Shown piece after piece: positions 9,432-43,246 of a stretch of 64,000 nucleotides of DNA. Source of the stretch: Escherichia coli (lineage in GTDB: Bacteria > Pseudomonadota > Gammaproteobacteria > Enterobacterales > Enterobacteriaceae). How positions within the stretch are numbered: position 1 is the stretch's first letter; the number at the start of each line of letters is the position of its first letter. The position numbers and the translations under genes are program-made. The stretch is taken from assembly GCF_030013595.1 (NCBI RefSeq), contig NZ_CP122768.1, one strand, 5' to 3'. Below the pieces are notes generated by a model. That model was not told where the DNA came from, did no database searches, and saw only the letters and a list, made by a program, of their open reading frames with translations.

Positions 9432-9545
9432 TGATTAGCTTTCGTAGGCCAGATAAGACGCGACAGCGTCGCATCAGGCCTTGTGCACGATTGCCGGATG
9501 CGGCGCCTTATCCGGCCTGGATGGGGTGCTGCGACGAACACCAAC
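9431..9545. repeat. REP (repetitive extragenic palindromic) element cluster downstream of hybG
   Basis: Imperfect palindromes of the gccggatgcggcg / cgcatcaggc type between convergent hybG and yghU. Confidence 0.6.
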
Positions 9546-9547
9546 CC

Positions 9548-10414
9548 TTACCCCTGACGCTTATCTTCCGTATTCGTCTCGAAATCACTGGCGTCATGGC
9601 GTTCATGCAACTGCTCGTTCAGCGGTCCGTTGGTGCGGTTAACAATACGCCCACGCTTCACCGCCGGACGTTCGCCCACTTCTTTCGCCCAGCGTTGTAC
9701 GTGTTTATAACTTCCCGCATCCAGAAACTCTGCGGCATCATACACGCCGCCTAACACCACGTTGCCAAACCACGGCCAAATCGCCATATCCGCAATGGTG
9801 TACTCATCGCCCGCAACAAACTTATGCTGCGCCAGTTGCTTATCCAGCACGTCGAGCAGGCGCTTGGCTTCCATAGTAAAGCGGTTGATGGCGTACTCAA
9901 TTTTCACCGGCGCGTAATGGTAAAAGTGACCAAAACCACCGCCGAGGAACGGCGCGGCACCCTGTAACCAGAACAGCCAGTTCAGCGTTTCAGTCCGTTT
10001 TGCCAGATCCTGCGGCAGGAAGTAGCCAAATTTCTCCGCCAGATAAAGCAGAATCGATCCAGACTCAAACACGCGGATCGGTGGATTATGAGTATGATCG
10101 CGCAATGCCGGAATCTTCGAATTCGGGTTCACTTCGACAAAGCCGCTGGAGAATTGATCGCCATCGCCTATGCGTATCAGCCAGGCATCGTACTCTGCAC
10201 CAGTAACGCCCAGCGCCAGCAGCTCCTCAAGCATAATCGTTACTTTCTGACCGTTCGGCGTTCCCAGCGAATAGAGTTGTAAGGGGTGTTTGCCAACGGG
10301 CAGCGTTTTTTCATGCGTCGGACCAGAAACCGGGCGATTGATATTGGCGAACGCGCCGCCGGCGGATTTGTCCCACGTCCAGACTTTCGCGGGCTGATAA
10401 GTATTGTCTGTCAT
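9548..10414 (-). CDS. yghU: Glutathione S-transferase-like protein
   Basis: ORF 9548-10462; preferred start at 10414 (MTDNTYQPAKV) gives 288 aa; GST fold and synteny. Confidence 0.85.
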   Translation of the reverse strand: MTDNTYQPAKVWTWDKSAGGAFANINRPVSGPTHEKTLPVGKHPLQLYSLGTPNGQKVTIMLEELLALGVTGAEYDAWLIRIGDGDQFSSGFVEVNPNSKIPALRDHTHNPPIRVFESGSILLYLAEKFGYFLPQDLAKRTETLNWLFWLQGAAPFLGGGFGHFYHYAPVKIEYAINRFTMEAKRLLDVLDKQLAQHKFVAGDEYTIADMAIWPWFGNVVLGGVYDAAEFLDAGSYKHVQRWAKEVGERPAVKRGRIVNRTNGPLNEQLHERHDASDFETNTEDKRQG

Positions 10415-10618
10415 AGTGAGTTGCCTTCTCAGTGGTAGTGTCGAAGCAGTGTAGCAGGTCACTTGCTGTACAGAATGTGAATTTTTTAACCCTTTGCGCC
10501 AGCCGCTGCGATGAGGTGTATGATTAGTCTGACCTCTGTCCGGTTAATGTCGCTGAGCAGGTAATCAGAGCACAACAATTACGCCAACTGCTTAGGTTGT
10601 ATTGTTAAAGGTAAAGTG

Positions 10619-12478
10619 ATGAGCAAAGGAACGACCAGCCAGGATGCCCCGTTCGGGACATTATTGGGCTACGCCCCAGGTGGGGTAGCAATCTACTCTT
10701 CAGATTACAGTTCTCTCGATCCGCAGGAATACGAAGATGACGCCGTATTCCGTAGCTATATCGACGACGAATATATGGGCCACAAATGGCAATGCGTTGA
10801 ATTTGCTCGCCGTTTTCTCTTTCTGAATTACGGTGTGGTCTTCACTGACGTGGGTATGGCGTGGGAGATTTTCTCGCTGCGCTTCCTGCGTGAAGTGGTT
10901 AATGACAACATCCTGCCATTGCAGGCATTTCCTAATGGCTCGCCGCGTGCACCGGTCGCGGGCGCGCTTCTTATCTGGGATAAAGGCGGTGAATTTAAAG
11001 ACACTGGCCATGTCGCCATCATTACCCAATTGCATGGCAACAAAGTCCGTATTGCGGAACAGAACGTGATTCATTCCCCGTTGCCGCAAGGACAACAGTG
11101 GACACGCGAGCTGGAGATGGTGGTCGAAAACGGCTGCTATACCCTTAAAGACACTTTTGATGACACCACCATTCTCGGCTGGATGATCCAGACGGAAGAT
11201 ACTGAATACAGCTTACCGCAGCCGGAAATTGCAGGCGAGCTGCTGAAAATCAGCGGAGCGCGTCTGGAAAACAAAGGCCAGTTTGACGGTAAATGGCTGG
11301 ATGAAAAAGATCCGCTACAAAACGCCTATGTGCAGGCCAACGGTCAGGTGATCAATCAGGATCCGTATCATTACTACACCATTACCGAGAGTGCCGAGCA
11401 GGAGCTGATTAAAGCCACCAACGAGCTGCACCTGATGTATCTTCACGCCACCGACAAGGTGCTGAAAGATGACAACCTGCTGGCGCTGTTCGACATCCCA
11501 AAAATCCTTTGGCCACGTTTGCGTCTCTCCTGGCAGCGTCGCCGTCACCATATGATCACCGGTCGTATGGATTTCTGCATGGATGAGCGTGGCCTGAAGG
11601 TCTACGAATACAACGCCGACTCCGCCTCCTGTCATACCGAAGCGGGCTTGATCCTCGAACGTTGGGCGGAGCAGGGCTATAAAGGCAACGGCTTCAATCC
11701 GGCGGAAGGGCTGATTAACGAACTGGCTGGTGCCTGGAAACACAGTCGTGCACGTCCGTTTGTCCATATCATGCAGGACAAAGATATCGAGGAAAACTAT
11801 CACGCGCAGTTTATGGAGCAGGCGCTGCACCAGGCGGGCTTTGAAACACGTATCTTGCGCGGGCTGGATGAACTGGGCTGGGATGCTGCCGGGCAACTGA
11901 TTGATGGGGAAGGGCGACTGGTTAACTGCGTGTGGAAAACCTGGGCGTGGGAAACCGCGTTTGATCAGATTCGTGAAGTTAGCGACCGTGAGTTTGCTGC
12001 GGTGCCGATCCGTACCGGTCATCCGCAAAATGAAGTGCGTCTTATCGACGTATTGCTGCGCCCGGAAGTGCTGGTCTTTGAACCTCTGTGGACAGTGATC
12101 CCCGGCAACAAAGCGATTCTTCCGATCCTCTGGTCGCTGTTCCCGCACCATCGTTACCTACTGGATACCGATTTCACTGTTAATGATGAACTGGTAAAAA
12201 CAGGTTACGCAGTGAAACCGATCGCTGGTCGCTGTGGTAGCAATATCGACCTGGTCAGCCATCATGAAGAGGTGCTGGACAAAACCAGCGGTAAATTTGC
12301 CGAGCAGAAAAACATCTATCAGCAACTGTGGTGTTTGCCGAAAGTGGACGGTAAATACATTCAGGTATGTACCTTCACCGTTGGCGGCAACTACGGTGGG
12401 ACGTGTTTGCGCGGTGATGAATCACTGGTCATCAAAAAAGAGAGTGATATTGAACCGCTAATTGTGGTGAAAGAGTAA
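10619..12478 (+). CDS. gss: Bifunctional glutathionylspermidine synthetase/amidase
   Basis: 619 aa from the second Met (MSKGTTSQDAPFGTLLGYAPGG); amidase domain at the N-terminus, synthetase domain at the C-terminus. Confidence 0.9.
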   Translation: MSKGTTSQDAPFGTLLGYAPGGVAIYSSDYSSLDPQEYEDDAVFRSYIDDEYMGHKWQCVEFARRFLFLNYGVVFTDVGMAWEIFSLRFLREVVNDNILPLQAFPNGSPRAPVAGALLIWDKGGEFKDTGHVAIITQLHGNKVRIAEQNVIHSPLPQGQQWTRELEMVVENGCYTLKDTFDDTTILGWMIQTEDTEYSLPQPEIAGELLKISGARLENKGQFDGKWLDEKDPLQNAYVQANGQVINQDPYHYYTITESAEQELIKATNELHLMYLHATDKVLKDDNLLALFDIPKILWPRLRLSWQRRRHHMITGRMDFCMDERGLKVYEYNADSASCHTEAGLILERWAEQGYKGNGFNPAEGLINELAGAWKHSRARPFVHIMQDKDIEENYHAQFMEQALHQAGFETRILRGLDELGWDAAGQLIDGEGRLVNCVWKTWAWETAFDQIREVSDREFAAVPIRTGHPQNEVRLIDVLLRPEVLVFEPLWTVIPGNKAILPILWSLFPHHRYLLDTDFTVNDELVKTGYAVKPIAGRCGSNIDLVSHHEEVLDKTSGKFAEQKNIYQQLWCLPKVDGKYIQVCTFTVGGNYGGTCLRGDESLVIKKESDIEPLIVVKE

Positions 12479-14317: not shown

Positions 14318-15010
14318 CTAGTGATAACCACGCGCGGTCATAAAATCCGTAATCGCTTTTTCCGCATCAACCAGCACTTGTTCCAGCGGTTGATTGGCAT
14401 CGATATCAACCAGTTGCGCGCCTCCAAAGGTTAACTGTGGCGTTATGGCTATCTTCCTTTCCAGCGATTCTCTTTTGTGGTCAGGCTTACGCGCGCAGGC
14501 CACGTCCAGATCGACATTGAGTTTGATGACCAGATCGGGCTTATGGCTCGCCATCCAGTGAAACGCTTTACGTTCCTGGCTTGCCAGCCATGAGACAAAA
14601 CGACCACCTTCAACGTTAGGTGGGAACACCGTACCATCGTAAGCACCAGGAATTTGGTCCTGAGGATAACGGTCGGTTAGAACAATTAACCCGCGACGAC
14701 GACAGGCAAGCATATGACGAAAGCGCAGTAAGCGACGGGCGACAAACGCTGTAATTACCAGCGCCGGAACAGGGCCAGGCAATTTTTTTGCTGTTTTCAC
14801 CTGATTTCGTTCAATTGTTTTATGTAAGGATTTTCCCATCAACGGTAATTTTGTCACTGCACGACCGACATTTCCGGCCTGTTTTCCTAAATGAACTCTT
14901 TCGGCAGCACCATATTTTTCGACAACGGTAATGAGATGTTCACACACCGTTGACTTGCCTGAACCATCGCTACCAATAACGGCAATTAATGGAGGTGTTA
15001 TTGACTGCAT
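14318..15010 (-). CDS. yghT: P-loop NTPase/kinase-like protein
   Basis: 230 aa; Walker [11 protein letters not shown] at N-terminus and a DRY-type motif; paralog of the two following ORFs. Confidence 0.75.
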
Positions 15011-15183
15011 GAATATATCCTTTAATTTAAATATCCATTAAAAATATTTATTTGGTTAATATGTTTTTATGAAAGCGTAATTCAGGTCAATGTCACAATT
15101 AACCATTGTCACAATAAGGTTGAACGGATATTCTGAGCACGGACCACGTAATATTCAATACATTATTTGCTGCCGGGTTTTTC

Positions 15184-15897
15184 GTGAATCAACGTAATAT
15201 GTCAATAATTAATTCCACGCCAGTGCGTGTTATTGCCATTGTAGGATGTGATGGTTCAGGTAAATCGACCCTCACGGCAAGCCTGGTAAATGAACTGGCA
15301 GCAACAATGCCAACAGAACACATTTATCTCGGGCAATCGTCCGGGCGAATTGGCGAATGGATTTCACAGCTCCCTGTTATTGGCGCACCTTTTGGGCGTT
15401 ATTTGCGAAGTAAAGCGGCACATGTGCACGAAAAGCCCTTAACACCGCCTGGCAATATTACTGCGCTGGTTATCTATCTGCTTTCCTGCTGGCGGGCGTA
15501 CAAGTTTCGCAAAATGTTGTGTAAAAGCCAGCAAGGCTATCTGCTCATCACCGACCGCTACCCGCAGGTTGAAGTGCCGGGTTTTCGCTTTGATGGCCCG
15601 CAATTGGCAAAAACCACGGGCGGTAACGGTTGGATAAAAATGTTAAGGCAGCGCGAGCTGAAGCTGTACCAATGGATGGCGTCTTATTTGCCCGTATTGT
15701 TGATTCGTCTTGGCATTGATGAACAAACCGCGTTTGCGCGTAAACCTGACCACCAACTGGCAGCGTTACAGGAAAAAATCGCCGTTACGCCGCAACTGAC
15801 ATTCAATGGCGCAAAGATCCTTGAACTGGATGGTCGGCAACCAGCCGATGAAATTATGCAAGCGTCACTACGCGCAATTCACGCCGCGCTTTCCTGA
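15184..15897 (+). CDS. yghS: P-loop NTPase/kinase-like protein
   Basis: 237 aa; Walker A VGCDGSGKST; ITDRYPQ motif. Confidence 0.75.
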   Translation: MNQRNMSIINSTPVRVIAIVGCDGSGKSTLTASLVNELAATMPTEHIYLGQSSGRIGEWISQLPVIGAPFGRYLRSKAAHVHEKPLTPPGNITALVIYLLSCWRAYKFRKMLCKSQQGYLLITDRYPQVEVPGFRFDGPQLAKTTGGNGWIKMLRQRELKLYQWMASYLPVLLIRLGIDEQTAFARKPDHQLAALQEKIAVTPQLTFNGAKILELDGRQPADEIMQASLRAIHAALS

Positions 15898-15928
15898 TCA
15901 CCAAAATGGATAGGGGATGATTTAACGA

Positions 15929-16687
15929 ATGGATGCACTACAAACACAAACTGTTAATAGTACAACCGCGCCGCAGCCCAACTACATTCCGGGGCTGATT
16001 GCGGTGGTCGGGTGTGATGGCACCGGTAAATCCACGCTGACCACCGACCTGGTGAAATCGCTGCAACAACACTGGCAAACCGAGCGGCGCTATCTGGGGC
16101 TGCTCTCCGGCGAAGACGGCGACAAAATCAAACGATTGCCGTTGGTTGGCGTCTGGCTGGAACGGCGACTGGCGGCCAAATCCTCGAAAACCCAAAGCAT
16201 GAAAACCAAATCTCCGGCGCTATGGGCGGCGGTGATTATGTACTGCTTTTCGCTGCGAAGAATGGCGAATCTACGCAAGGTTCAGCGACTGGCGCAAAGT
16301 GGCGTTCTGGTGGTCAGCGATCGCTTCCCGCAGGCTGAAATTTCGGGCTTTTATTATGACGGACCGGGGATTGGCGTCGAACGTGCGACCGGGAAAATCA
16401 GCATGTTTCTGGCGCAGCGCGAACGGCGTTTATACCAACAAATGGCGCAATATCGCCCGGAATTAATTATTCGCCTGGGCATTGATATTGAGACTGCCAT
16501 CTCCCGCAAGCCTGACCATGACTATGCCGAGCTGCAGGACAAAATCGGCGTCATGTCGACGATTGGCTATAACGGCACAAAAATTCTTGAGATTGATTCC
16601 AGAGCGCCCTACAGCGAAGTGCTGGAACAGGCACAGAAGGCGGTTTCTCTGGTTGCCATCGTTTCTGACCGCCGAAGTTTAACTTAA
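15929..16687 (+). CDS. yghR: P-loop NTPase/kinase-like protein
   Basis: 252 aa; Walker A VGCDGTGKST; VSDRFPQ motif. Confidence 0.75.
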   Translation: MDALQTQTVNSTTAPQPNYIPGLIAVVGCDGTGKSTLTTDLVKSLQQHWQTERRYLGLLSGEDGDKIKRLPLVGVWLERRLAAKSSKTQSMKTKSPALWAAVIMYCFSLRRMANLRKVQRLAQSGVLVVSDRFPQAEISGFYYDGPGIGVERATGKISMFLAQRERRLYQQMAQYRPELIIRLGIDIETAISRKPDHDYAELQDKIGVMSTIGYNGTKILEIDSRAPYSEVLEQAQKAVSLVAIVSDRRSLT

Positions 16688-16732
16688 GGCTGGCGGGATA
16701 CTTTTTACTATCAACGATAAGGTCAGGCTGAA

Positions 16733-18082
16733 TTGGCGGGTCTTAACATCAAACATTGGTTTGCAGATGGCGCGTTTCGCACCATTATTCGCAATAGCGC
16801 CTGGTTAGGCTCCAGTAATGTCGTGAGCGCCTTGCTGGGTCTGTTGGCGCTCTCGTGTGCCGGTAAAGGGATGACGCCCGCCATGTTTGGCGTACTGGTG
16901 ATTGTGCAATCGTACGCCAAGTCGATCAGCGATTTTATTAAGTTTCAGACATGGCAGTTGGTGGTGCAGTACGGAACGCCAGCCTTGACCAACAATAATC
17001 CGCAGCAATTTCGCAATGTCGTCTCATTTTCCTTCTCGCTGGATATCGTCAGCGGCGCGGTGGCGATTGTCGGCGGCATTGCCTTACTGCCATTCCTTTC
17101 CCATTCATTAGGTCTGGATGACCAAAGCTTTTGGCTGGCGGCGCTGTATTGCACGCTCATTCCTTCAATGGCTTCCTCCACGCCGACCGGCATTCTGCGT
17201 GCGGTAGATCGCTTCGATCTAATTGCTGTACAGCAGGCGACGAAACCTTTTCTGCGCGCAGCGGGGAGCGTCGTAGCTTGGTATTTTGACTTTGGTTTTG
17301 CGGGTTTTGTTATTGCCTGGTACGTGTCGAATCTGGTTGGCGGCACCATGTACTGGTGGTTTGCCGCGCGCGAATTACGCCGCAGAAATATCCATAACGC
17401 GTTCAAATTGAATCTGTTTGAGTCTGCCCGACACATTAAAGGCGCGTGGAGTTTTGTCTGGTCAACCAACATTGCCCACTCCATCTGGTCGGCACGTAAC
17501 TCGTGCAGCACAGTGTTGGTGGGGATCGTGTTAGGACCCGCTGCCGCCGGGTTATTTAAAATCGCCATGACATTCTTCGACGCCGCCGGAACGCCAGCGG
17601 GTTTACTGGGTAAAAGTTTTTACCCAGAGGTGATGCGTTTAGATCCGCGCACCACCAGACCGTGGTTGTTAGGCGTGAAGTCCGGTTTACTGGCGGGCGG
17701 AATCGGTATTCTGGTGGCGCTCGCGGTGTTGATCGTCGGCAAGCCGCTCATTTCGCTGGTGTTTGGCGTTAAGTATCTCGAAGCGTATGACCTGATTCAG
17801 GTGATGCTGGGCGCAATTGTGATCTCGATGCTGGGCTTCCCACAGGAGTCATTGCTATTGATGGCGGGAAAACAGCGCGCTTTTCTCGTGGCGCAAACCA
17901 TCGCCTCAATCGGCTACATCGTATTGCTGTTCATGTTCTGTCATCTGTTTGGCGTGCTGGGGGCTGCATTTGCTTACTTCGGTGGGCAATGTCTGGATGT
18001 GGTGTTCTCGCTAATTCCGACCTTAAAGGCATTTTTTCAGCGCCATTCCTTGCTTTATAACGCAGCCGGAGAGAAATCCTGA
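16733..18082 (+). CDS. yghQ: Multi-span inner membrane protein, MOP/Wzx-like flippase family (start uncertain)
   Basis: 449-aa hydrophobic ORF; stop TGA overlaps the next ATG (ATGATG at 18079-18084); synteny with yghQ. Confidence 0.7.
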   Translation: MAGLNIKHWFADGAFRTIIRNSAWLGSSNVVSALLGLLALSCAGKGMTPAMFGVLVIVQSYAKSISDFIKFQTWQLVVQYGTPALTNNNPQQFRNVVSFSFSLDIVSGAVAIVGGIALLPFLSHSLGLDDQSFWLAALYCTLIPSMASSTPTGILRAVDRFDLIAVQQATKPFLRAAGSVVAWYFDFGFAGFVIAWYVSNLVGGTMYWWFAARELRRRNIHNAFKLNLFESARHIKGAWSFVWSTNIAHSIWSARNSCSTVLVGIVLGPAAAGLFKIAMTFFDAAGTPAGLLGKSFYPEVMRLDPRTTRPWLLGVKSGLLAGGIGILVALAVLIVGKPLISLVFGVKYLEAYDLIQVMLGAIVISMLGFPQESLLLMAGKQRAFLVAQTIASIGYIVLLFMFCHLFGVLGAAFAYFGGQCLDVVFSLIPTLKAFFQRHSLLYNAAGEKS

Positions 18083-18918
18083 TGATGAGAAAATATTTCC
18101 CGCTTGAGGCGAGCGAGCGTCTATTTGTTGCGATTGAAGAAGATGATGTCGTTGATGCACAGGTCAGTTTGCCGCCGACTATCGCACTAAGTTGTACCAC
18201 CGAAATCATCCATGATAATTACGCGTTATGCCTGAAATTCTGGCTGGATGGTGTTAATCGTCAGGAGCTACTGCGTTTAATCCGCAAACAGGCGAAAGGC
18301 GATGAGCTGACGACAGACGAGCGCAAAAAGTATAAATACATGCGAGCGCGCTACAAGCATCTGCGCTTTGCGCAACGGCTGTATTTAAAGAAGCATCAGG
18401 CCGGATTTTTATTCGGCAAAACGACCGTTTTTTTGGGGCGTTTTCAGGACGGCTTTCGTAACGGTAAGAAAAATATTGTGTCGTATTACGGCAACCTGTT
18501 ACGGGTTTATTTAAGCTCTCCGGTCTGGTCGTTGGTGAACTATTCATTACGCCATAGCCAGTTAGAAAGCGTAAGCGGTTTTATTGCCTATCGGCAAAAG
18601 CAAATGCATACCCTGAAAGAGATAATTGCCAAACCGCGACTAACTGGCAGGGAATTTCATGATGTGCGAAAAATCATCAGCCAGCAGGTTTCTTATTACG
18701 ACACCCTAAGATCGCTTGATCCTGAAAATAAAGAGGCGTTACAGATTTCCCGCTTCCTCGCCGCCATTAATGGCCTGATGGGGGATAAACACGACGACAT
18801 GGTGGCGGATGATATGGAAAACCGCCAGTCGTATGATGCACCGATGGCGCTGGATAGCGATATTCGTCAGCGCTTAGAACTGCTGATTTCGCGTTTCCCA
18901 CTATATCCGGAGCAATAA
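18082..18918 (+). CDS. Hypothetical cytoplasmic protein (278 aa), translationally coupled to yghQ
   Basis: Long ORF with start overlapping the yghQ stop and stop overlapping the next start (TAATG); basic and charged, no signal peptide seen. Confidence 0.55.
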   Translation: MMRKYFPLEASERLFVAIEEDDVVDAQVSLPPTIALSCTTEIIHDNYALCLKFWLDGVNRQELLRLIRKQAKGDELTTDERKKYKYMRARYKHLRFAQRLYLKKHQAGFLFGKTTVFLGRFQDGFRNGKKNIVSYYGNLLRVYLSSPVWSLVNYSLRHSQLESVSGFIAYRQKQMHTLKEIIAKPRLTGREFHDVRKIISQQVSYYDTLRSLDPENKEALQISRFLAAINGLMGDKHDDMVADDMENRQSYDAPMALDSDIRQRLELLISRFPLYPEQ

Positions 18919-19478
18919 TGCCATCTCGTTGGATTTTCGCTCTGATCATCGCACTCTTAGCGCCAGGCGCGGCGGCACACAATTTCGTCACTGGCAAAAC
19001 GGTTACCCCTGTTTATATCCAGGAAGGTGGTGAGCTGCTTCTGAATAGCGATGACGAAATTCACTACCAAAAGTGGAACAGCACACAATTGGCGGGAAAA
19101 GTCCGCATTATTCAGTATATCGCCGGGCGTAAGTCGGCGAAGAAAAAGAACTCACTGTTAATTAAAGCGGTTGAAGCGGCAAACTTTCCACAGGATCGTT
19201 TTCAGCCCACCACCATTGTGAACACCGATGATGCCATCTTTGGTACTGGCTATTTTGTCGTTGGCAAAATCGAAAAAAATAAACGCCGCTATCCGTGGGC
19301 GCAATTCGTTATTGACGGCAATGGACAGGGACGTGTTGCTTGGCGGTTGCCGGAGCAGAGTTCAACCATTCTGGTGCTGAATAAAGCCGGGCAAATTCAG
19401 TGGGCAAAGGACGGCAGCCTGACGCCGGAAGAGGTAGATCATGTCATTGCGCTGGCGCAGAAGCTGATCAATGAATAA
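18918..19478 (+). CDS. Hypothetical secreted/periplasmic protein (186 aa)
   Basis: N-terminal signal peptide MPSRWIFALIIALLAPGAAAHNF (AxA cleavage-type site, no lipobox Cys). Confidence 0.55.
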   Translation: MPSRWIFALIIALLAPGAAAHNFVTGKTVTPVYIQEGGELLLNSDDEIHYQKWNSTQLAGKVRIIQYIAGRKSAKKKNSLLIKAVEAANFPQDRFQPTTIVNTDDAIFGTGYFVVGKIEKNKRRYPWAQFVIDGNGQGRVAWRLPEQSSTILVLNKAGQIQWAKDGSLTPEEVDHVIALAQKLINE

Positions 19479-19508
19479 AAAACTCAAAGGATTGAGGGCA
19501 TTAGTGGG

Positions 19509-20579
19509 ATGAAGCTGGTTGAACACTACATCATGCGTGGTACGCGCCGTCTGGTGCTGATTATCGTCGGTTTTCTGATCTTTATTTTCGCCAGCTACTC
19601 CGCACAGCGTTATCTGACCGAAGCGGCAAATGGGACATTAGCTCTTGATGTTGTGCTGGATATTGTTTTCTACAAGGTGCTGATTGCACTGGAGATGTTG
19701 TTACCTGTTGGACTGTATGTGTCAGTTGGCGTGACGCTAGGGCAGATGTATACCGACTCGGAAATTACCGCTATTTCTGCGGCGGGGGGGAGTCCGGGAC
19801 GCTTGTACAAAGCCGTTCTTTATCTGGCGATACCGCTAAGTATTTTTGTCACCCTTCTGTCGATGTATGGTCGGCCGTGGGCTTATGCGCAGATTTATCA
19901 ACTGGAGCAACAGTCGCAGTCGGAGCTGGATGTTCGCCAGTTGCGGGCAAAGAAATTTAACACTAACGATAACGGACGAATGATCCTTTCGCAGACGGTT
20001 GATCAGGATAATAATCGCCTGACTGACGTGCTGATTTATACTTCTACTGCCAATCGAACCCGTATTTTCCGCGCCCGTTCGGTTGATGTGGTTGACCCAT
20101 CACCCGAGAAACCGACCGTTATGTTGCACAACGGCACTGCCTATCTTCTCGATCATCAGGGGCGTGACGACAACGAACAGATCTACCGTCATCTGCAATT
20201 ACATCTGAATCCGCTGGATCAAAGCCCTAACGTCAAACGCAAAGCGAAATCGGTCACGGAGCTGGCGCGCTCCGTCTTTCCAGCCGATCATGCCGAACTG
20301 CAATGGCGACAAAGCCGTGGCCTGACAGCATTGTTGATGGCGCTGCTGGCCATTTCATTAAGTCGGGTAAAACCGCGGCAAGGGCGATTTTCAACATTAT
20401 TGCCACTGACGTTGCTGTTTATTGCCATTTTTTATGGCGGCGACGTCTGCCGTACGCTGGTGGCTAACGGCGCGATTCCCCTCATTCCTGGTTTGTGGTT
20501 AGTACCCGGACTCATGCTAATGGGCCTGCTGATGCTGGTCGCACGCGACTTCTCTTTGCTGCAGAAATTTTCCCGATGA
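19509..20579 (+). CDS. LptF-like permease (YjgP/YjgQ family) paralog
   Basis: 356 aa; membrane topology and YTDSEITAISAAG segment resemble the LptF/LptG family. Confidence 0.7.
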   Translation: MKLVEHYIMRGTRRLVLIIVGFLIFIFASYSAQRYLTEAANGTLALDVVLDIVFYKVLIALEMLLPVGLYVSVGVTLGQMYTDSEITAISAAGGSPGRLYKAVLYLAIPLSIFVTLLSMYGRPWAYAQIYQLEQQSQSELDVRQLRAKKFNTNDNGRMILSQTVDQDNNRLTDVLIYTSTANRTRIFRARSVDVVDPSPEKPTVMLHNGTAYLLDHQGRDDNEQIYRHLQLHLNPLDQSPNVKRKAKSVTELARSVFPADHAELQWRQSRGLTALLMALLAISLSRVKPRQGRFSTLLPLTLLFIAIFYGGDVCRTLVANGAIPLIPGLWLVPGLMLMGLLMLVARDFSLLQKFSR

Positions 20580-21655
20580 ATGTTTTCAGTCGCTATTTAA
20601 TCCGTCATCTCTTTCTCGGTTTTGCCGCCGCCGCAGGGCTATTGCTGCCGCTTTTTACCACCTTCAACCTGATTAACGAACTGGATGATGTCAGCCCGGG
20701 TGGTTATCGCTGGACTCAGGCGGTGCTGGTGGTGCTGATGACCTTACCGCGCACACTGGTCGAACTTTCGCCGTTTATCGCATTATTGGGAGGGATTGTT
20801 GGCCTGGGGCAGTTATCGAAAAACAGTGAGCTTACCGCCATTCGCAGCACGGGGTTTTCTATCTTCCGTATTGCACTAGTGGCGCTGGTTGCCGGGATAT
20901 TTTGGACTGTTTCGTTAGGCGCGATAGATGAGTGGGTGGCGTCGCCATTGCAGCAACAGGCGCTGCAAATCAAATCGACTGCCACCGCGTTGGGGGAGGA
21001 CGATGACATTACCGGCAATATGCTTTGGGCCAGGCGCGGTAATGAATTTGTGACGGTGAAATCGCTGAACGAGCAGGGCCAGCCTGTGGGCGTGGAGATA
21101 TTTCATTATCGCGACGATCTCTCGCTCGAATCCTACATTTTTGCACGCAGTGCCTCCATTGAAGACGACAAAACGTGGATCCTGCATGGTGTGAATCATA
21201 AAAAATGGTTGAATGGCAAAGAAACGCTGGAAACATCAGATAATCTTGCCTGGCAATCGGCCTTCACCAGTATGAATCTTGAAGAGTTATCGATGCCGGG
21301 AAATACTTTTTCTGTCCGTCAACTTAATCATTACATCCATTATTTGCAGGAAACTGGGCAACCCAGCAGCGAATACCGCCTTGCACTGTGGGAAAAACTG
21401 GGACAACCCATCCTGACTCTGGCGATGATTTTGCTGGCTGTGCCGTTTACCTTTAGTGCCCCGCGTTCGCCTGGGATGGGTAGCCGTCTCGCTGTAGGCG
21501 TCATCGTGGGCTTACTTACCTGGATCAGCTATCAAATCATGGTCAATCTGGGATTGCTATTTGCGTTGAGCGCACCTGTTACCGCGCTCGGTTTACCGGT
21601 AGCGTTTGTGCTGGTGGCGTTGAGCCTGGTGTATTGGTATGACAGACAACATTAA
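20576..21655 (+). CDS. LptG-like permease (YjgP/YjgQ family) paralog
   Basis: Start ATG 20576 overlapping upstream stop (ATGA); 359 aa; N-terminal MNVFSRYLIRHLF typical of LptF/G permeases. Confidence 0.7.
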   Translation: MNVFSRYLIRHLFLGFAAAAGLLLPLFTTFNLINELDDVSPGGYRWTQAVLVVLMTLPRTLVELSPFIALLGGIVGLGQLSKNSELTAIRSTGFSIFRIALVALVAGIFWTVSLGAIDEWVASPLQQQALQIKSTATALGEDDDITGNMLWARRGNEFVTVKSLNEQGQPVGVEIFHYRDDLSLESYIFARSASIEDDKTWILHGVNHKKWLNGKETLETSDNLAWQSAFTSMNLEELSMPGNTFSVRQLNHYIHYLQETGQPSSEYRLALWEKLGQPILTLAMILLAVPFTFSAPRSPGMGSRLAVGVIVGLLTWISYQIMVNLGLLFALSAPVTALGLPVAFVLVALSLVYWYDRQH

Positions 21656-21656
21656 A

Positions 21657-21683
21657 CCCGCCGTGGCGCAACACCACAGCGGG
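21657..21683. terminator. Hairpin between convergent operons (possible bidirectional terminator)
   Basis: cccgccgtgg ... ccacagcggg near-perfect inverted repeat in the 34-nt gap between the LptG-like stop and the oxoamine synthase stop. Confidence 0.4.
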
Positions 21684-21689
21684 CTCACA

Positions 21690-22862
21690 TTACTGCTTCA
21701 GAGTAGCGAACGCTTGAATGATGGCATCAATTTGCTCACGACTGTGGGCAGCGTTTACGCTACAGCGCAGCAGCGTGATGCCTGCAGGCGCGGCAGGTGG
21801 CAGGATAAGATTCACATAAACGCCCAGCGAAATAAGCTCGCGCCAGATGCGTAAACCTTCCTCTTTCGAACCGATTATTACTGGCACTACCGGGCTAATA
21901 TGTGAACTTAACTCATAACCCAGTTTTTGCAGACCGTCATACAGATGGTTGGCATTATCCATCAGCTTTTGCCGCAACTCTGGTTGTGTAGCAATGGTTC
22001 TTAACGACGAGCGCACGGTCGCAATGCAGGACGGAGAAGGAGAGGCGGTAAAAATATACGGGCGGCTGCCGTAGCGCAGCACTTCCATCGCTTCCGAACC
22101 GACAGCAAAACCGCCAATCGAGGCCAGACTTTTACTGAAAGTACCAACGATAATATCCACATCATCTTCAACGCCAACGGCTTCAGCCAGTCCGCGCCCC
22201 GTTGCGCCTAACACGCCAAACGAATGCGCTTCATCGACAATCAAATAACCACCGAGACGACGTTTGATATCAACAATTTCCGCCAGCGGCGCAACGTCAC
22301 CGAGCATACTGTAGATGCCTTCAACGATGATAATCGCCTCTTTTGCCCGTTCACCGAGGCGAACCATGCGCCGTTCCAGATCTTTAGCATCGTTATGGCG
22401 GAAACGAATAATTTCCGCGCCACCGAGAGAACAGGCGTCATAAATACTGGCGTGGCTGTCGGCATCCAGTAACACCACGGCGTTATGGTCGGCAAGTGCG
22501 CTGATGACGCCTAAATTAGCGGTATAACCGGTTGAAAAAACGATAGCGGTAGGGCGATTAAAAAACTCGGCGATCTCTTTCTCTAACGCCAGATGCGGCG
22601 CATAACTGCCGTTTGCCATACGAGAACCGGTGGTGCCGGTGCCTTGGGCCGCTAACGCTGCCTGACCTTCGGCGATGGCATCATGATTAAAGGTTAAACC
22701 GAGATAATTATTGGTCCCGGCCAGAATCACTTTTTTATTGCCGATCCGACCTTCGGTGGCGGAATACACTTCATCAATACAGGTGCCAAACGGTGTTAAC
22801 CCGTTGTCACTAAATTGCAGTCGCTCGCCAGCAAGGCGCGCATATTTATCGTATAGCCCCAT
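21690..22862 (-). CDS. PLP-dependent alpha-oxoamine synthase, serine palmitoyltransferase-like
   Basis: 390 aa; class I/II aminotransferase fold; DEAHSFG and GTFSKSL (PLP-lysine) motifs. Confidence 0.8.
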   Translation of the reverse strand: MGLYDKYARLAGERLQFSDNGLTPFGTCIDEVYSATEGRIGNKKVILAGTNNYLGLTFNHDAIAEGQAALAAQGTGTTGSRMANGSYAPHLALEKEIAEFFNRPTAIVFSTGYTANLGVISALADHNAVVLLDADSHASIYDACSLGGAEIIRFRHNDAKDLERRMVRLGERAKEAIIIVEGIYSMLGDVAPLAEIVDIKRRLGGYLIVDEAHSFGVLGATGRGLAEAVGVEDDVDIIVGTFSKSLASIGGFAVGSEAMEVLRYGSRPYIFTASPSPSCIATVRSSLRTIATQPELRQKLMDNANHLYDGLQKLGYELSSHISPVVPVIIGSKEEGLRIWRELISLGVYVNLILPPAAPAGITLLRCSVNAAHSREQIDAIIQAFATLKQ

Positions 22863-23110
22863 TATTTATTCTCCAGCCATGGAAGTAGTGTTTCCATTAA
22901 TTGCGCAGGGGTTTTGACATCCAGCAGAATATTAATAGGAATGGAAATATCGAATCTGTCTTCCAGCATCATTAAGAGATCCATCACTTTGATCGACTCC
23001 AGGCCAAGATCGTTGACGAGATCGCTGTCGGACTTAATTTCCACACCGTTTTCGACCAAATCCTGTAAACAGGAAAGGATGTAATCCATTACTATTTCAC
23101 GATTTACCAT
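22862..23110 (-). CDS. Acyl carrier protein
   Basis: 82 aa, acidic, with DLGLESIKVMDL phosphopantetheine-attachment-type serine motif. Confidence 0.75.
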   Translation of the reverse strand: MVNREIVMDYILSCLQDLVENGVEIKSDSDLVNDLGLESIKVMDLLMMLEDRFDISIPINILLDVKTPAQLMETLLPWLENK

Positions 23111-23141
23111 AGAAACGTTAACACACCTTTAAACAAGACAA

Positions 23142-24056
23142 TCAAAATAGCCCGTTGCGTAATGCGTGTTCCAGGCTAATCCCGGGAAACCAATTAATAT
23201 CTTCAGAAATACGGTTATTACTTGCCGACCAGTCGGCATGAGTTAATTCACGGATTTTCGAACGAGTCAGCATCGGTTCTTTACCCGCCAGACGGCTCAA
23301 CGCGGTACTGATATCCGCAAGGCAGGTGAGTAGCGGCAGAGGAATACCGACCATCCGCACGGAACCACAGCGGACATCGGCAATAAGCTGTTGGACACGT
23401 TGCCAGTCATAGCCTCCGGCGACGCCATCGCATAATTCATAGGTTTGCGTCTGTACAGTTTCGGCGCTTAACCACTGCCCCACGGCTTGCGCGAAATCGG
23501 TGACGTGCAGGAAAGAGAGCTGTGTATCTGGCGCACCAAGTCGTGGCAGTAGGCCGCGCAGCATCCAGTCAAACAGCGGTTTTAACTCTTTATCGCCGGG
23601 ACCATACACGGCTGTCGGGCGAAAAATGCCCAGCGTAATTTCGTCAGCCATTGCGGTCAGTCGTTGTTCGGCGACGTGTTTGGAATTTGCGTACCAGGAG
23701 AGTTCGGGATGGCGCGCCGCCAGCGAAGAGATAAACAGAAAACGTTGGCAAAAGCCGCTCTCTTTTGCCGCTTGCATCAGTCGCAGGCTGCCGTCAACGT
23801 TACAGCGGGTAAAAATCTCTTCTTTGTGCCCGCGCACTTGCCCGGCGCAATGGACCACCGCGCTGGCTCCGGCAACCAGTTCGCTAAGTGAATGAGTATC
23901 TTCCAGAGAACCGCGCACCCAGATGAGATTGTCATTGACGTGAGCGCGGGCAGTACGCGTCAATGCGCGAACGTGAAAGCCGCGGGCGAGCAGGTTATCG
24001 ATAATATATTTACCGATAAACCCGGTAGCGCCCGTCACCGCGACAGTTTGATTCAT
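23142..24056 (-). CDS. NAD(P)-dependent epimerase/dehydratase-family reductase
   Basis: 304 aa; N-terminal Rossmann motif VTGATGFIGKYI. Confidence 0.75.
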   Translation of the reverse strand: MNQTVAVTGATGFIGKYIIDNLLARGFHVRALTRTARAHVNDNLIWVRGSLEDTHSLSELVAGASAVVHCAGQVRGHKEEIFTRCNVDGSLRLMQAAKESGFCQRFLFISSLAARHPELSWYANSKHVAEQRLTAMADEITLGIFRPTAVYGPGDKELKPLFDWMLRGLLPRLGAPDTQLSFLHVTDFAQAVGQWLSAETVQTQTYELCDGVAGGYDWQRVQQLIADVRCGSVRMVGIPLPLLTCLADISTALSRLAGKEPMLTRSKIRELTHADWSASNNRISEDINWFPGISLEHALRNGLF

Positions 24057-25804
24057 GCCAGGGATTCCTGCACATGAAGGCTTGCAGCATAAGCCTTCTG
24101 ATAACGTTTTTTCGCTTCCGCACGGGCAGGCTTGCCGGAGGACGTTCGGGGAATACTGTGGGGCGGCAACAGATCGATAGCCGCGGTCACGCCAAATTCG
24201 CTTTGGATCGGTGCTGCCAGCGCGTGGATAAGCTGCCCGCGACGTTCTTCATCGCTGATCCGACACTGGATCTGCAAAATGATTTTTTCCTGGGCGGTAA
24301 CAAAAGCAATCGCATCGCCAGAATGAATTTCCGGTTCCTGTTCCGCAATATATTCAATATCCTGCGGCCAGATATTACGGCCACGAATAATAATCAGATC
24401 TTTAATGCGCCCGGTGACATACAGATAACCGTCCAGCAGATAACCGAGGTCGCCGGTGTCTAACCAGCCCGTCGCGGCAATCTCGTCTTGTGAAATCTGG
24501 TCGCCAAAGTAACCGCTCATCAGGCTAGGGCCGGAGATGCAAATATGGCCTACCACACGTTCCGCGACAGGTATACCTGCTTCATTGCGGATTTCAATGC
24601 CATGTTCTGGCAACGCTTTACCGCAGTTGACGAAAGTCGATACGGCGCGTGTTTCAGCACCCGGCGCGACGGCTTTGCCCTGATATTCAAGGATGTCGCG
24701 ATCCACTTCGTTAACCACAACCCCGGAGGCTTCATCAGAGAAGCTGACAGCCAGCGCATTTTCTGCCAGTCCGTAGCACGGCATGAACGTTTTATCGTCA
24801 AAGTTAACCTGACGGAAACATTCAGCGAATTGATGGAGTTGTTCTGCGGAGATCGGCTCAGCACCAATACCAGCGACGCGCCAGCAGGATAGATCCAGTT
24901 CAGCGAGATCTTTTTCATTCACGCGGCGCTGGCACAATTCATAGCCAAACGGCGGCGCAACGGAAACGGTGCCGCGATTTTTACTGATCAATTTAAGCCA
25001 TTGCAGAGGACGCATGGCAAAATCCTGAGTGCGCAAATAATCTACTGAGAGCTGCGTGGCGACGGGGGTCAGGAGAAAGCCGACCAGTCCCATATCATGG
25101 TAGAAAGGCAGCCAGGAGACGCAGCGGTCGCCAGGGCGTAATTTAATGCCATCGTGGCTTATAGCACGTAGATTAGCCATCACTTCGCGATGGGTGATAA
25201 TGACGCCACGGGGAAAACGGGTGCTGCCGGAGGTGTACTGGAGGTAGGCGATATCGTTCGGAACTGGATGCTGGAGTGCAACATCGGCTTCCGGTAATGC
25301 CTTAAACCAGGCGTGGCTTAAAACATGTAATTCGGGGTTGTTGTTATGCGTCGCGGCATTGACCAGCGGTAACCACTCATCACCAGTGATAATGGCTGCG
25401 GGCTGGCAACTTGTCAGTAAACCCTGCAGTTTGGCGCTCCAGGAATCCCGCTGACCGACGCCCATTGGAATCGCCAACGGGACGGCGACTAAGCCGGCAT
25501 ACTGGCAGGAAAAAAAAGCCTCTACGAACCCGCTACTGGTTTCGGCAATCAGCGCCACGCGATCGCCTTTTTTCAGGTTCAGCGATAACAATCGCTTCGC
25601 ACCAGCTTCGGCACGCGCTTTTAACGTCTGATATTCCAGTTGATCTTCAAGTTGGCAACGTCTGTCATAAAAATTCATTCCGGCGCTACTCAGAGCGGCG
25701 TAGTCCAAAGCATCAACCAGCGTTGGAAAATCGGCATAGCGCATAGGTAGGGAATGCGTAAAGATTTTATTAGACATATACACCACGAAAAAATTGGATA
25801 TCAA
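24053..25804 (-). CDS. Fatty acyl-AMP ligase / acyl-ACP synthetase (AMP-binding family)
   Basis: 583 aa; AMP-binding motif YLQYTSGSTRFPRGV; start may be at a downstream Met. Confidence 0.8.
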   Translation of the reverse strand: MISNFFVVYMSNKIFTHSLPMRYADFPTLVDALDYAALSSAGMNFYDRRCQLEDQLEYQTLKARAEAGAKRLLSLNLKKGDRVALIAETSSGFVEAFFSCQYAGLVAVPLAIPMGVGQRDSWSAKLQGLLTSCQPAAIITGDEWLPLVNAATHNNNPELHVLSHAWFKALPEADVALQHPVPNDIAYLQYTSGSTRFPRGVIITHREVMANLRAISHDGIKLRPGDRCVSWLPFYHDMGLVGFLLTPVATQLSVDYLRTQDFAMRPLQWLKLISKNRGTVSVAPPFGYELCQRRVNEKDLAELDLSCWRVAGIGAEPISAEQLHQFAECFRQVNFDDKTFMPCYGLAENALAVSFSDEASGVVVNEVDRDILEYQGKAVAPGAETRAVSTFVNCGKALPEHGIEIRNEAGIPVAERVVGHICISGPSLMSGYFGDQISQDEIAATGWLDTGDLGYLLDGYLYVTGRIKDLIIIRGRNIWPQDIEYIAEQEPEIHSGDAIAFVTAQEKIILQIQCRISDEERRGQLIHALAAPIQSEFGVTAAIDLLPPHSIPRTSSGKPARAEAKKRYQKAYAASLHVQESLA

Positions 25805-26148
25805 AAATAAAATGACAATAATGCGGTGGATTATATAGGCATAAAAGATAAATGAGATAGTATTTTCATTAGTGTGAAAATGAACATTGATTTAAATAAT
25901 GAGTTTGAGTTTTTTTGTTTTTATTGTGAATGATATTTAATTTATGAATGTATTAAGAAGAAGCCTTGTCCGGTCGCCTTAAATCGACAAAAGGCATTGT
26001 GGCGCTTCTGTGTAGTCTCTGACCTTATCGTAATCATTAATAAATGCTATTTATTCGTCGTTTGTATTCATTGGGTTGATTATTAAGGTGCCGTTCGTTG
26101 CTGTTGCAACCTGTTTGTCACCGTTAATTATTTGTTACCCACAGAACT
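25805..26148. promoter_or_regulatory. AT-rich divergent promoter region between the lipid operon and yghO
   Basis: About 340 nt of strongly AT-rich non-coding DNA between divergent gene starts. Confidence 0.4.
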
Positions 26149-27291
26149 ATGGAATGCGATCTGCTGATGATTAAAATTGAAAAAGTAATTAATAAAAATG
26201 ACCTTAAGGCATTTATCGCTTTTCCGTCATCACTTTATCCCGACGATCCAAACTGGATACCCCCTTTATTCATTGAACGCAACGAGCATTTGTCTGCGAA
26301 AAATCCGGGGACGGACCATATCATCTGGCAGGCGTGGGTGGCAAAAAAAGCGGGGCAGATAGTCGGGCGTATTACCGCGCAAATAGATACCTTGCACCGC
26401 GAGCGTTACGGCAAAGATACCGGTCATTTCGGCATGATTGACGCCATTGATGATCCGCAGGTTTTTGCCGCGTTGTTTGGCGCAGCGGAAGCGTGGTTGA
26501 AGTCACAAGGTGCAAGTAAGATCAGCGGGCCTTTCAGCCTGAATATCAATCAGGAAAGCGGATTACTGATTGAAGGTTTTGACACACCACCCTGTGCGAT
26601 GATGCCACACGGCAAACCGTGGTATGCCGCGCATATTGAACAACTGGGTTATCACAAAGGCATTGATTTACTGGCGTGGTGGATGCAGCGAACCGATCTC
26701 ACGTTCTCTCCGGCGCTAAAAAAACTGATGGATCAGGTGCGCAAAAAGGTGACCATTCGCTGCATCAATCGCCAGCGGTTTGCCGAAGAGATGCAGATCC
26801 TGCGTGAGATTTTCAACTCCGGCTGGCAGCACAACTGGGGATTTGTGCCGTTTACCGAACATGAATTCGCGACCATGGGCGATCAACTTAAATATCTGGT
26901 GCCGGACGATATGATCTACATCGCTGAGATTGATTCTGCACCCTGCGCGTTTATTGTCGGCTTGCCAAACATCAACGAGGCGATTGCCGATCTGAACGGA
27001 TCGCTCTTTCCCTTCGGCTGGGCAAAATTGCTGTGGCGTTTAAAAGTCAGCGGTGTGCGAACTGCGCGAGTACCGCTGATGGGCGTGCGGGACGAGTATC
27101 TGTTTAGCCGCATCGGCCCGGTGATTGCGCTGTTATTGATTGAAGCCTTACGCGATCCGTTTGCCCGCCGGAAGATCGATGCGCTGGAGATGTCATGGAT
27201 CCTCGAAACCAATACAGGCATGAATAACATGCTGGAACGCATTGGGGCGGAGCCGTACAAGCGTTACCGATTGTATGAAAAGCAGATTTGA
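26149..27291 (+). CDS. yghO: Acetyltransferase-fold (GNAT-like) protein; putative N-acyltransferase (intact here)
   Basis: 380-aa ORF at the yghO position next to glcC; fold assignment from reading the translation, not searched. Confidence 0.6.
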   Translation: MECDLLMIKIEKVINKNDLKAFIAFPSSLYPDDPNWIPPLFIERNEHLSAKNPGTDHIIWQAWVAKKAGQIVGRITAQIDTLHRERYGKDTGHFGMIDAIDDPQVFAALFGAAEAWLKSQGASKISGPFSLNINQESGLLIEGFDTPPCAMMPHGKPWYAAHIEQLGYHKGIDLLAWWMQRTDLTFSPALKKLMDQVRKKVTIRCINRQRFAEEMQILREIFNSGWQHNWGFVPFTEHEFATMGDQLKYLVPDDMIYIAEIDSAPCAFIVGLPNINEAIADLNGSLFPFGWAKLLWRLKVSGVRTARVPLMGVRDEYLFSRIGPVIALLLIEALRDPFARRKIDALEMSWILETNTGMNNMLERIGAEPYKRYRLYEKQI

Positions 27292-41789: not shown

Positions 41790-41935
41790 CCGGATAAGGC
41801 GCTCGCGCCGCATCCGGCATGAAATAAGGCGCATCGGGTCAACACATATGCCCGATGCGCCAGCTTATCGGGCCTGGAGGAAAGCCGTATGGCATACACC
41901 CGCAGGCCCGCATCCGGCAAGTTACAACAAATAAC
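41790..41935. repeat. REP element cluster downstream of sslE
   Basis: Multiple gccggatgcggcg / cgcatcgggc palindromic units. Confidence 0.6.
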
Positions 41936-41943
41936 CTTTAACC

Positions 41944-42753
41944 ATGTTTTTTGATGTTTTTCAGCAATACCCCGCGGCGATGCCCATACTGGCAACCGTC
42001 GGAGGATTGATTATCGGCAGTTTTTTGAATGTGGTGATTTGGCGTTACCCCATCATGCTGCGCCAACAAATGGCGGAGTTTCACGGTGAAATGCCGAGTA
42101 CGCAGTCAAAAATAAGCCTGGCGCTGCCACGCTCGCACTGTCCGCATTGCCAGCAGACTATCCGCGTTCGTGACAATATTCCGCTGCTCTCCTGGTTGAT
42201 GCTCAAAGGGCGCTGCCGCGACTGTCAGGCGAAAATCAGCAAGCGTTATCCGCTGGTGGAGTTATTGACGGCACTCGCTTTTTTGCTGGCGAGCCTGGTG
42301 TGGCCGGAAAGTGGATGGGCGCTGGCGGTGATGATATTATCCGCCTGGCTGATTGCCGCGAGCGTCATTGACCTCGATAACCAATGGCTGCCCGATGTTT
42401 TTACTCAGGGCGTATTGTGGACGGGACTAATTGCGGCATGGGCGCAGCAGAGTCCGCTCACGCTACAAGACGCAGTCACCGGCGTACTGGTGGGATTTAT
42501 CACTTTTTACTCCCTGCGCTGGATAGCCGGAATAGTTCTGCGTAAAGAAGCATTAGGCATGGGCGATGTATTACTCTTCGCCGCTTTAGGTGGCTGGGTG
42601 GGGGCGTTATCACTGCCCAACGTTGCTTTAATCGCCTCATGCTGCGGCCTGATATATGCCGTTATTACAAAAAGAGGATCAACCACACTGCCTTTTGGAC
42701 CGTGTTTAAGTCTGGGCGGTATAGCAACACTTTATCTACAGGCATTGTTTTAA
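41944..42753 (+). CDS. pppA: Prepilin peptidase (GspO-type)
   Basis: 269 aa; N-terminal Cys-rich region and multi-span peptidase A24 architecture. Confidence 0.85.
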
Positions 42754-43229: not shown

Positions 43230-43246
43230 CGTCGGGTAGATATAAA

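Follow-up and report, generated by a model that had tools for sequence, protein, structure and literature searches.

The region between positions 14318 and 27291 of the window analysed here (a stretch of 64,000 nucleotides of Escherichia coli DNA, contig NZ_CP122768.1 of assembly GCF_030013595.1) is very probably a chromosomal locus for sphingolipid (ceramide) synthesis. Its biosynthetic core consists of four genes on the minus strand, aasR, cerR, acpR and spt, and of the divergently transcribed yghO. A preliminary description of this DNA had likened the combination of ligase, acyl carrier protein (ACP), oxoamine synthase, ketoreductase and N-acyltransferase to the ceramide set of Caulobacter, and profile scores, the fold of YghO and synteny bear this out. 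The linked, conserved module is larger than the biosynthetic core and spans the whole of 14318–27291, adding paralogues of LptF and LptG (LptF2 and LptG2), the YghQ flippase, YghR, YghS and YghT, a YtfJ paralogue and a helical protein of 278 amino acids. The ceramide reading of the locus is correct but already published, which makes it a rediscovery: Padilla-Gómez et al. (2022) studied the same locus in E. coli BL21(DE3), where it comprises ECD_02850–ECD_02854 (PMC9386255). The author of the preliminary description knew of no characterised product, a point now overtaken, as production of 3-oxo-sphinganine by the BL21(DE3) orthologues is on record (PMC9386255).

The BL21(DE3) locus has an identical gene order, with protein identities of 95.6–99.7%, and differs at the strain level only: in where aasR and the gene for the 278-residue protein are annotated to start, and by 304 nucleotide substitutions over 12 genes. 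Its YghO has the accession also found in a strain that matches the window at 99.9% DNA identity along the part that was queried. RefSeq already names the synthase gene "spt: serine palmitoyltransferase" in thousands of genomes, and a recent preprint draws the "sphingolipid operons" of E. coli UTI89, LptF/LptG paralogues included, beside those of Caulobacter and Sphingomonas wittichii (10.64898/2026.04.12.717747).

The spt gene (21690–22862, minus strand) encodes a pyridoxal 5'-phosphate (PLP)-dependent protein of 390 residues with Lys244 as its PLP lysine, and profile scores and comparison with solved relatives support its assignment to the serine palmitoyltransferases (SPTs) of the Alpha-, Beta- and Gammaproteobacteria clade. 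It scores 600 bits against NF047599, the NCBIfam SPT equivalog model "SerpalmtaseBetaP" (cut-off 500), while staying below the cut-offs of the NCBIfam models for bioF (334 against 426), Kbl (298 against 460), 5-aminolevulinate synthase (ALAS; 220 against 339) and CqsA (221 against 428); on the "AlphaP" model it reaches 430 bits against a cut-off of 670. Among solved structures the SPTs of Sphingomonas rank first at 374–377 bits (best PDB entry 2JG2, 377), followed by Sphingobacterium SPT (265), the cysteate-C-fatty acyltransferase (CFAT) of sulfonolipid synthesis (28EH, 207), Kbl (187–204), BioF (about 176) and CqsA (124). The enzymes of S. paucimobilis and S. wittichii (2JG2, 2X8U) belong to the same fold family, and the alignment at 377 bits runs over the full length of the protein. 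Their PLP-binding lysine and the accompanying His, Asp, His and Arg390-equivalent residues are shared: K244, H137, D210, H213 and R366 of Spt align with K265, H159, D231, H234 and R390 of 2JG2, and none of the five varies among 39 sequences. The claim that the synthase is closer to SPT than to BioF or Kbl thus stands, and an identity as BioF or Kbl is rejected on the missed NCBIfam cut-offs and the higher scores of solved SPTs; on the CqsA scores just given, a CAI-1-type synthase is rejected likewise. Spt is 99.5% identical (388 of 390 residues) to ECD_02854 of BL21, whose [14C]serine-labelled product runs as 3-oxo-sphinganine does and which prefers palmitoyl-AcpR over palmitoyl-CoA (PMC9386255).

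Two further genes would supply the acyl substrate. AasR (574 residues; 24053–25777, minus strand) is a fatty acyl-AMP ligase (FAAL)-type acyl-AcpR synthetase, which passes the FAAL model NF006624 (868 bits, where 600 are required) but gets no further than 99 bits on the FadD model (cut-off 884), by which a housekeeping ligase of the FadD or Aas kind is rejected. In keeping with the preliminary description, then, the synthase does not fall with BioF or Kbl, nor the ligase with FadD or Aas. The specialised carrier protein AcpR (82 residues; 22862–23110, minus strand) is encoded directly upstream of spt with the FAAL-type ligase nearby, and has its phosphopantetheine site at Ser39 within the motif DLGLESI; in S. 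wittichii, too, Spt has an ACP upstream as its partner (PMC9386255). AcpR and AasR are 98.8% and 95.6% identical to ECD_02853 and ECD_02851 of BL21, respectively. ECD_02853 carries 4'-phosphopantetheine and incorporates beta-alanine; ECD_02851, AcpR and ECD_02854 together yield 3-oxo-sphinganine in vivo when co-expressed; and the E. coli AasR functions with the E. coli AcpR and not with the Caulobacter ACP (PMC9386255).

For the reductase and the acyltransferase the argument proceeds by homology. CerR, also named Epi (304 residues; 23142–24056, minus strand), is an extended short-chain dehydrogenase/reductase of NDUFA9-like type and a putative ceramide 3-keto reductase; it has a TGxxGxxG motif (VTGATGFIGKYI) at residue 7 and a catalytic YANSK at residue 122, and its best solved relatives include several NDUFA9-type subunits. 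It is 96.4% identical to its BL21 orthologue ECD_02852, which has been named a keto-reductase homologue, with 34% identity to CC_1164 (E 7e-38; PMC9386255). YghO (26149–27291, plus strand) appears to be a homologue of the bacterial ceramide synthase (bCerS/Aca) family of CC_1154, and N-acylation is its putative function. It is 99.7% identical to ECD_02850 of BL21, the named N-acyltransferase homologue, with 44% identity to CC_1154 over 98% coverage (E 1e-107; PMC9386255). The YghO sequence itself has no Pfam, NCBIfam or significant PDB sequence match, and no DNA-binding domain was detected in it; Acetyltransf_1, the GNAT family of Pfam, matches 5 of the 44 members of the YghO family. The AlphaFold2 model (pLDDT 95.3) matches the tandem GNATs 2WPW, 5KF1, 7Q3A and MshD with E-values of 1e-15 to 1e-11, the resemblance being to MshD and to a tandem-GNAT protein of clavulanate. 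YghO is 50% identical to a homologue in Nitrosomonas eutropha, and Neut_1100 of that species has been listed as a CC_1154 orthologue (PMC9386255). BL21 cells in which 3-oxo-sphinganine is supplied by overexpression give ceramide-like spots on thin-layer chromatography, a hint of N-acylation (PMC9386255).

Together, these genes suggest the following pathway. AasR would activate free long-chain fatty acid and load it onto AcpR, and Spt would condense acyl-AcpR with L-serine to give 3-oxo-sphinganine and CO2, both as demonstrated for the near-identical BL21(DE3) proteins. YghO would N-acylate the long-chain base and CerR would reduce the 3-keto group, yielding dihydroceramide, steps to which homology and conserved linkage point. 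The order of N-acylation and 3-keto reduction is disputed between two groups (PMC9386255). By analogy with Caulobacter, and on linkage, YghQ may flip the product across the inner membrane, and LptF2 and LptG2 may extract it toward the outer membrane, probably borrowing LptB. YghR, YghS, YghT, the YtfJ paralogue and the 278-residue protein would probably modify, traffic or regulate the lipid, which is the least-supported step of the scheme, and phosphorylation or another modification of the head group by YghR, YghS and YghT is speculative.

Several points weigh against reading the region as a working ceramide locus. Our literature search found no report of sphingolipids in wild-type E. coli. 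Neither empty vectors nor SPT by itself led to any 3-oxo-sphinganine in BL21(DE3), which carries the whole locus (PMC9386255), and the native genes therefore appear silent or very weakly expressed under the conditions used (complex medium, 30 °C). The roles of YghO and CerR in E. coli are predicted from homology, that of LptF2 and LptG2 as sphingolipid exporter subunits is suggested by analogy with a Caulobacter preprint, and there is no recognisable head-group enzyme within the E. coli locus. Finally, Leu354 of Spt (window positions 21801–21803) aligns with Arg378 of the S. paucimobilis SPT, a residue that has reportedly been implicated in binding of the serine carboxylate. A hydrophobic residue (Leu, Ile, Val or Phe) takes the equivalent position in each of the 37 other Spt homologues from YghO-linked loci, which indicates that Arg378 is not a defining residue for this group of SPTs.

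The lack of reported product could also mean that the locus is a relic, intact-looking but never expressed and without a role, with YghO doing some other job such as regulation or protein acetylation. Besides the missing reports of sphingolipids in E. coli and the absence of product from BL21 with empty vectors, this explanation can draw on the K-12 annotation, which calls yghO a putative DNA-binding regulator, on the inclusion of yghO in a lysine acetyltransferase screen, and on the fact that spt is missing from K-12 and from roughly one in four complete genomes. However, of 5426 complete E. coli genomes, 4092 have spt as a single chromosomal copy with 95–100% identity, and a query of 9.4 kb is covered to at least 80% in 4058 complete genomes. 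The loss in K-12 can be traced to IS5. The MG1655 annotation reads yghO, then IS5 (insH9), then a truncated yghQ, in line with the IS5 and truncated yghO that the preliminary description gave for this junction. When MG1655 positions 3122000–3137000 were aligned to the window by blastn, IS5 was found to replace 8387 bp (window positions 17802–26188; breakpoint 17801/17802), from the last 94 codons of yghQ through the first 40 nt of yghO. Given this mapped IS5 deletion and the presence of the locus in the majority of complete genomes, K-12 represents the derived, deleted state.

Patterns of substitution are also at odds with a relic. When non-synonymous and synonymous changes were compared with the BL21 orthologues of 12 genes, the 304 substitutions proved to be 237 synonymous and 67 non-synonymous, giving a dN/dS ratio of 0.084 overall. 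Per gene the ratio is lowest in yghO (0.025) and highest in acpR (0.27), which is a short gene; it is 0.23 in yghS, 0.06 in yghR, 0.10 in the gene for the 278-residue protein and 0.07 in lptG2. None of the 13 open reading frames (ORFs) of the module carries a frameshift or stop. Taken with the prevalence given above, these comparisons mark the locus as an ancestral one in E. coli that purifying selection maintains. The gene set moreover stays together through rearrangements in six other genera (Serratia, Erwinia, Rosenbergiella, Pluralibacter, Hafnia and Shimwellia), YghO has a tandem-GNAT fold with no DNA-binding domain detected, and silence under laboratory conditions does not keep a locus from being used in nature. 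We therefore regard a relic as very unlikely. The view of the module as accessory and inserted between yghQ and yghO survives in part: it is accessory insofar as some quarter of strains are without it, and no further, and the insertion is refuted by its prevalence and by the K-12 deletion. A horizontally inserted island was likewise rejected, with an unremarkable GC content of 0.50 across the locus, a prevalence of 75%, and no flanking mobile-element or tRNA gene in the RefSeq annotation.

The association of these genes extends well beyond E. coli. We searched 80 loci around YghO-family genes, taken from one genome per species, with all 13 proteins. The loci centred on YghO span Gamma-, Beta- and Alphaproteobacteria, Nitrospira and Desulfobacterota. 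Within 10 kb of the 53 full-length YghO genes among them, spt, acpR and aasR were found in 30 cases, cerR in 33, lptF2 in 34 and lptG2 in 37. The core made up by aasR-cerR-acpR-spt together with yghO, usually accompanied by lptF2-lptG2, occurs in Enterobacterales, Pseudomonas, Nitrococcus, Nitrosomonas, Nitrospira, Desulfobacterota and Alphaproteobacteria, and its divergent layout persists all the way from Enterobacterales to Pseudomonas, Nitrococcus and Nitrospira. The other genes of the module have a narrower distribution: in the 80 loci, yghR, yghS, yghT, yghQ, the gene for the 278-residue protein and the ytfJ paralogue occur in Enterobacterales and otherwise only in one Pseudomonas, one betaproteobacterial metagenome-assembled genome and one Luteibacter. 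In Enterobacterales, these accessory genes adjoin the core despite changes of order and side (Serratia, Erwinia, Rosenbergiella, Mangrovibacter).

Two of the loci were unusual in composition. In Shimwellia pseudoproteus a second paralogue of YghO, with 74% identity to our query (NZ_WBXP01000025.1, positions 10001–11122), lies on a contig different from that of the complete sphingolipid locus of this species and with none of the other 12 genes within 10 kb. In Luteibacter yeojuensis, homologues of YghO (10001–11119, 48% identity) and of the 278-residue protein (19806–21119, 51% identity) lie 9 kb apart, and no spt, acpR, cerR, aasR or lptF2/lptG2 was detected in the 21 kb fetched.

The remaining alternative is that the cluster makes some other aminolipid or signal: a sulfonolipid or capnine, made by condensing cysteate, a base that is 1-deoxy or derived from glycine, or a CAI-1-type alpha-hydroxyketone autoinducer. 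These chemistries share the alpha-oxoamine synthase superfamily, and CFAT (207 bits), Kbl and CqsA do appear among the matches of Spt; furthermore, relaxed substrate specificity is described for rhodobacterial SPTs (PMC9386255). Against this, the SPT equivalog is passed, with the bioF, Kbl, ALAS and CqsA models far below their cut-offs, and the solved SPTs lie some 170 bits above CFAT. The BL21 enzyme, 99.5% identical, puts [14C]serine into a 3-oxo-sphinganine-like product (PMC9386255), and the partner genes, with their bCerS and CerR homologues and LptF2/LptG2, fit a ceramide pathway. We consider another product class extremely unlikely. The resemblance to capnine/sulfonolipid chemistry, also raised in the preliminary description, is rejected (CFAT 207 bits against 377 for SPT).

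Among the closest known systems to this ceramide locus is that of Caulobacter crescentus (CC_1152–CC_1168, CCNA_01210–01226), which shares aasR, cerR, acpR, spt and bCerS with E. coli. Among the genomes compared by Padilla-Gómez et al., all five ceramide genes were clustered only in Caulobacter and in E. coli BL21 (PMC9386255). Both neighbourhoods also hold an LptF2/LptG2 pair and a flippase of the Polysacc_synt family. The two diverge at the head group. Caulobacter is known to make ceramide, ceramide phosphoglycerate (CPG) and CPG2, but the head-group genes used for comparison (PMC11324152, PMC10331486), those for the LCB5-type ceramide kinase CpgB, the Tam41-like CC_1161 and the transferase CC_1159, have no counterpart in the E. 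coli locus; nor do the nucleotidyltransferases CC_1152 and CC_1153, or LptC2. In NCBIfam, the Caulobacter CPG/CPG2 head-group families found no match among the ORFs of 14318–27291. As the corresponding genes are absent from the locus, the head-group steps cannot be transferred from Caulobacter. What the E. coli locus has instead is the trio of P-loop kinase-like proteins along with the YtfJ paralogue and the 278-residue helical protein, and the extended module thus offers concrete candidates for head-group and trafficking steps. It is conceivable, though we hold this tentatively, that E. coli and its relatives in the Enterobacterales make an outer-membrane sphingolipid with a head group unlike any described, under non-laboratory conditions, and that it is built by YghR, YghS and YghT, YghQ, the YtfJ paralogue and the 278-residue protein. 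Under such a scheme YghR, YghS and YghT would replace the LCB5-type ceramide kinase, and the YtfJ paralogue would likely be periplasmic. Our literature search on the functions of YghQ, YghR, YghS and YghT returned nothing relevant.

The permease genes lptF2 (19509–20579, plus strand) and lptG2 (20576–21655, plus strand) overlap by 4 nt and were not interpreted in the preliminary description, whose span also took in two further plus-strand genes left without interpretation, those for the 278-residue hypothetical protein and the YtfJ paralogue. LptF2 and LptG2 align over their full length with TIGR04407 (322 bits) and TIGR04408 (304 bits), passing both equivalog cut-offs, and are distant paralogues of the housekeeping pair, the score to the solved LptF of E. 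coli being about 96 bits. In canonical LptB2FG the subunits belong to the same families, but here they lie beside spt, away from the lptFG locus, and unlike the canonical lipopolysaccharide (LPS) exporter the sphingolipid locus holds no copy of LptB, LptC or LptA. The Caulobacter LptF2 and LptG2 form a complex, bind LptB and are deletable only in the absence of spt (10.64898/2026.04.12.717747). RefSeq labels the genes at 19509–21655 "LPS export ABC transporter permease LptF/LptG" with the symbols lptF and lptG, as it does in loci L001 and L008 of our collection, the latter being BL21(DE3). For permeases adjacent to spt this name is probably a misnomer, repeated across thousands of genomes.

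A similar problem attaches to the P-loop proteins. YghT (14318–15010, minus strand), which has a Walker A motif GSDGSGKS and is a paralogue of YghR and YghS, is a candidate head-group enzyme; yghS (15184–15897, plus strand; motif GCDGSGKS) and yghR (15929–16687, plus strand) likewise encode P-loop kinase-like proteins. YghT and YghS score 25 bits, and YghR 32 bits, against the dTMP kinase model, far below its cut-off of 83, for which reason the RefSeq name "dTMP kinase" for yghT and yghS is unsupported; both this name and that of the LptF/LptG LPS export permease are probably misleading. A PDB sequence search with YghR gave no significant solved relative. The yghT gene is linked to the spt cluster despite reordering in Erwinia, Rosenbergiella, Mangrovibacter and Serratia, and a YghS homologue of 55% identity lies beside spt in the betaproteobacterial metagenome-assembled genome. 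YghQ, present here at its full length of 449 residues (16733–18082, plus strand) and truncated by IS5 in K-12, is a flippase of the MOP/Polysacc_synt family, the family of CC_1166, the putative sphingolipid flippase of Caulobacter; its orthologues in Serratia and Pluralibacter match Pfam PF01943. The YtfJ-family paralogue (18918–19478, plus strand) scores 211 bits against TIGR01626 (cut-off 151), co-occurs with the module in Enterobacterales, and has an N-terminus, MPSRWIFALIIALLAPGAAAH, that is hydrophobic and, judged by eye, resembles a signal peptide.

The 278-residue protein ("Ybl138"; 18082–18918, plus strand), which is linked to the module, has no Pfam or NCBIfam match. Its AlphaFold2 model (pLDDT 92) is all-helical, with 11 helices, and a Foldseek search of the model against PDB gave nothing at E<0.001. 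Its relatives in AFDB50 (TM>0.9, 26–42% identity) come from Sphingomonas, Zymomonas, Acetobacter, Gluconobacter, Komagataeibacter and Pseudomonas veronii; most of these genera are known sphingolipid producers. The protein contains many invariant Arg, Lys and His residues. Among the matches listed in a profile search with it were Enterobacterales and no distant members, and a hidden Markov model search for the family in the 80 YghO-centred loci found it in Enterobacterales and one Luteibacter locus only. The label "CHAD domain-containing" borne by its distant AFDB50 relatives, for the most part proteins of Sphingomonas, Zymomonas and acetic acid bacteria, was not reproduced: the CHAD family of Pfam matches none of 28 members. 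At the junction with the ytfJ paralogue the two genes overlap by 1 nt in our window (positions 18906–18918), and the BL21(DE3) counterpart is annotated at 274 residues and stops 11 nt short of the ytfJ paralogue (25658–25670 of its locus), so that the junction varies between strains. Within the plus-strand array, conservation is lowest in these two genes, at 95–97% protein identity.

E. coli is usually treated as a sphingolipid-free host, and yet three quarters of its complete genomes keep a ceramide locus, with BL21(DE3) and pathogenic lineages among the carriers of an intact set of genes for ceramide synthesis and export. When sphingolipid enzymes are expressed in BL21, an endogenous background pathway should accordingly be considered.

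As to the layout of the locus, the genes lie where the preliminary description had placed them, all of its ORFs are confirmed, and the four motifs that it quoted are present: YTSGSTRFPRGV at residue 181 of AasR, VTGATGFIGKYI in CerR, and GTFSKSL and DEAHSFG at residues 240 and 210 of Spt. The minus-strand genes form the tight operon that it described, with a 4-nt overlap between aasR and cerR, a 31-nt gap between cerR and acpR, and a 1-nt overlap between acpR and spt. The start of aasR lies at 25777 in RefSeq, while the ORF list reaches a TTG at 25804. The intact yghO gene is indeed divergent across an AT-rich stretch, the aasR/yghO spacer of 371 bp (25778–26148), which has 31.8% GC against 52.5% for the window. 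A sigma-70 consensus scan of this control region gave 1 site against 2.8 expected, which is not above chance. On the other side, yghS is the first of seven co-directional genes that extend to lptG2 with gaps of at most 45 nt. The lptG2 and spt genes are convergent, and the 34-bp gap between them holds a hairpin with a 16-bp stem (21653–21687), which, as a pattern match, is a candidate bidirectional terminator. An Rfam search found no RNA families within the sphingolipid locus.

The gene order of the window is yqhA, the hyb operon, pitB, yghTSRQ, the sphingolipid locus, yghO, glcC-glcDEFGBA, sslE, the gsp genes and ansB. Elsewhere in it, Rfam matches above the gathering score were obtained for naRNA4 (9447–9517, minus strand), for the small RNA C0719 between glcA and sslE (34755–34976, minus strand), and for IS102 RNA (61891–62127, minus strand). 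A tRNA-Phe gene (53857–53931, minus strand) lies between yghD and yqgA and appears unoccupied by an island; we take it to be pheV, a frequent integration site of genomic islands. Downstream of the glc operon, positions 37232–53708 hold a complete sslE-pppA-gspS2-gspC...gspL-yghD cluster for type II secretion (T2SS-beta), of which K-12 presumably keeps only a part, so that the window may contain a second K-12 deletion.

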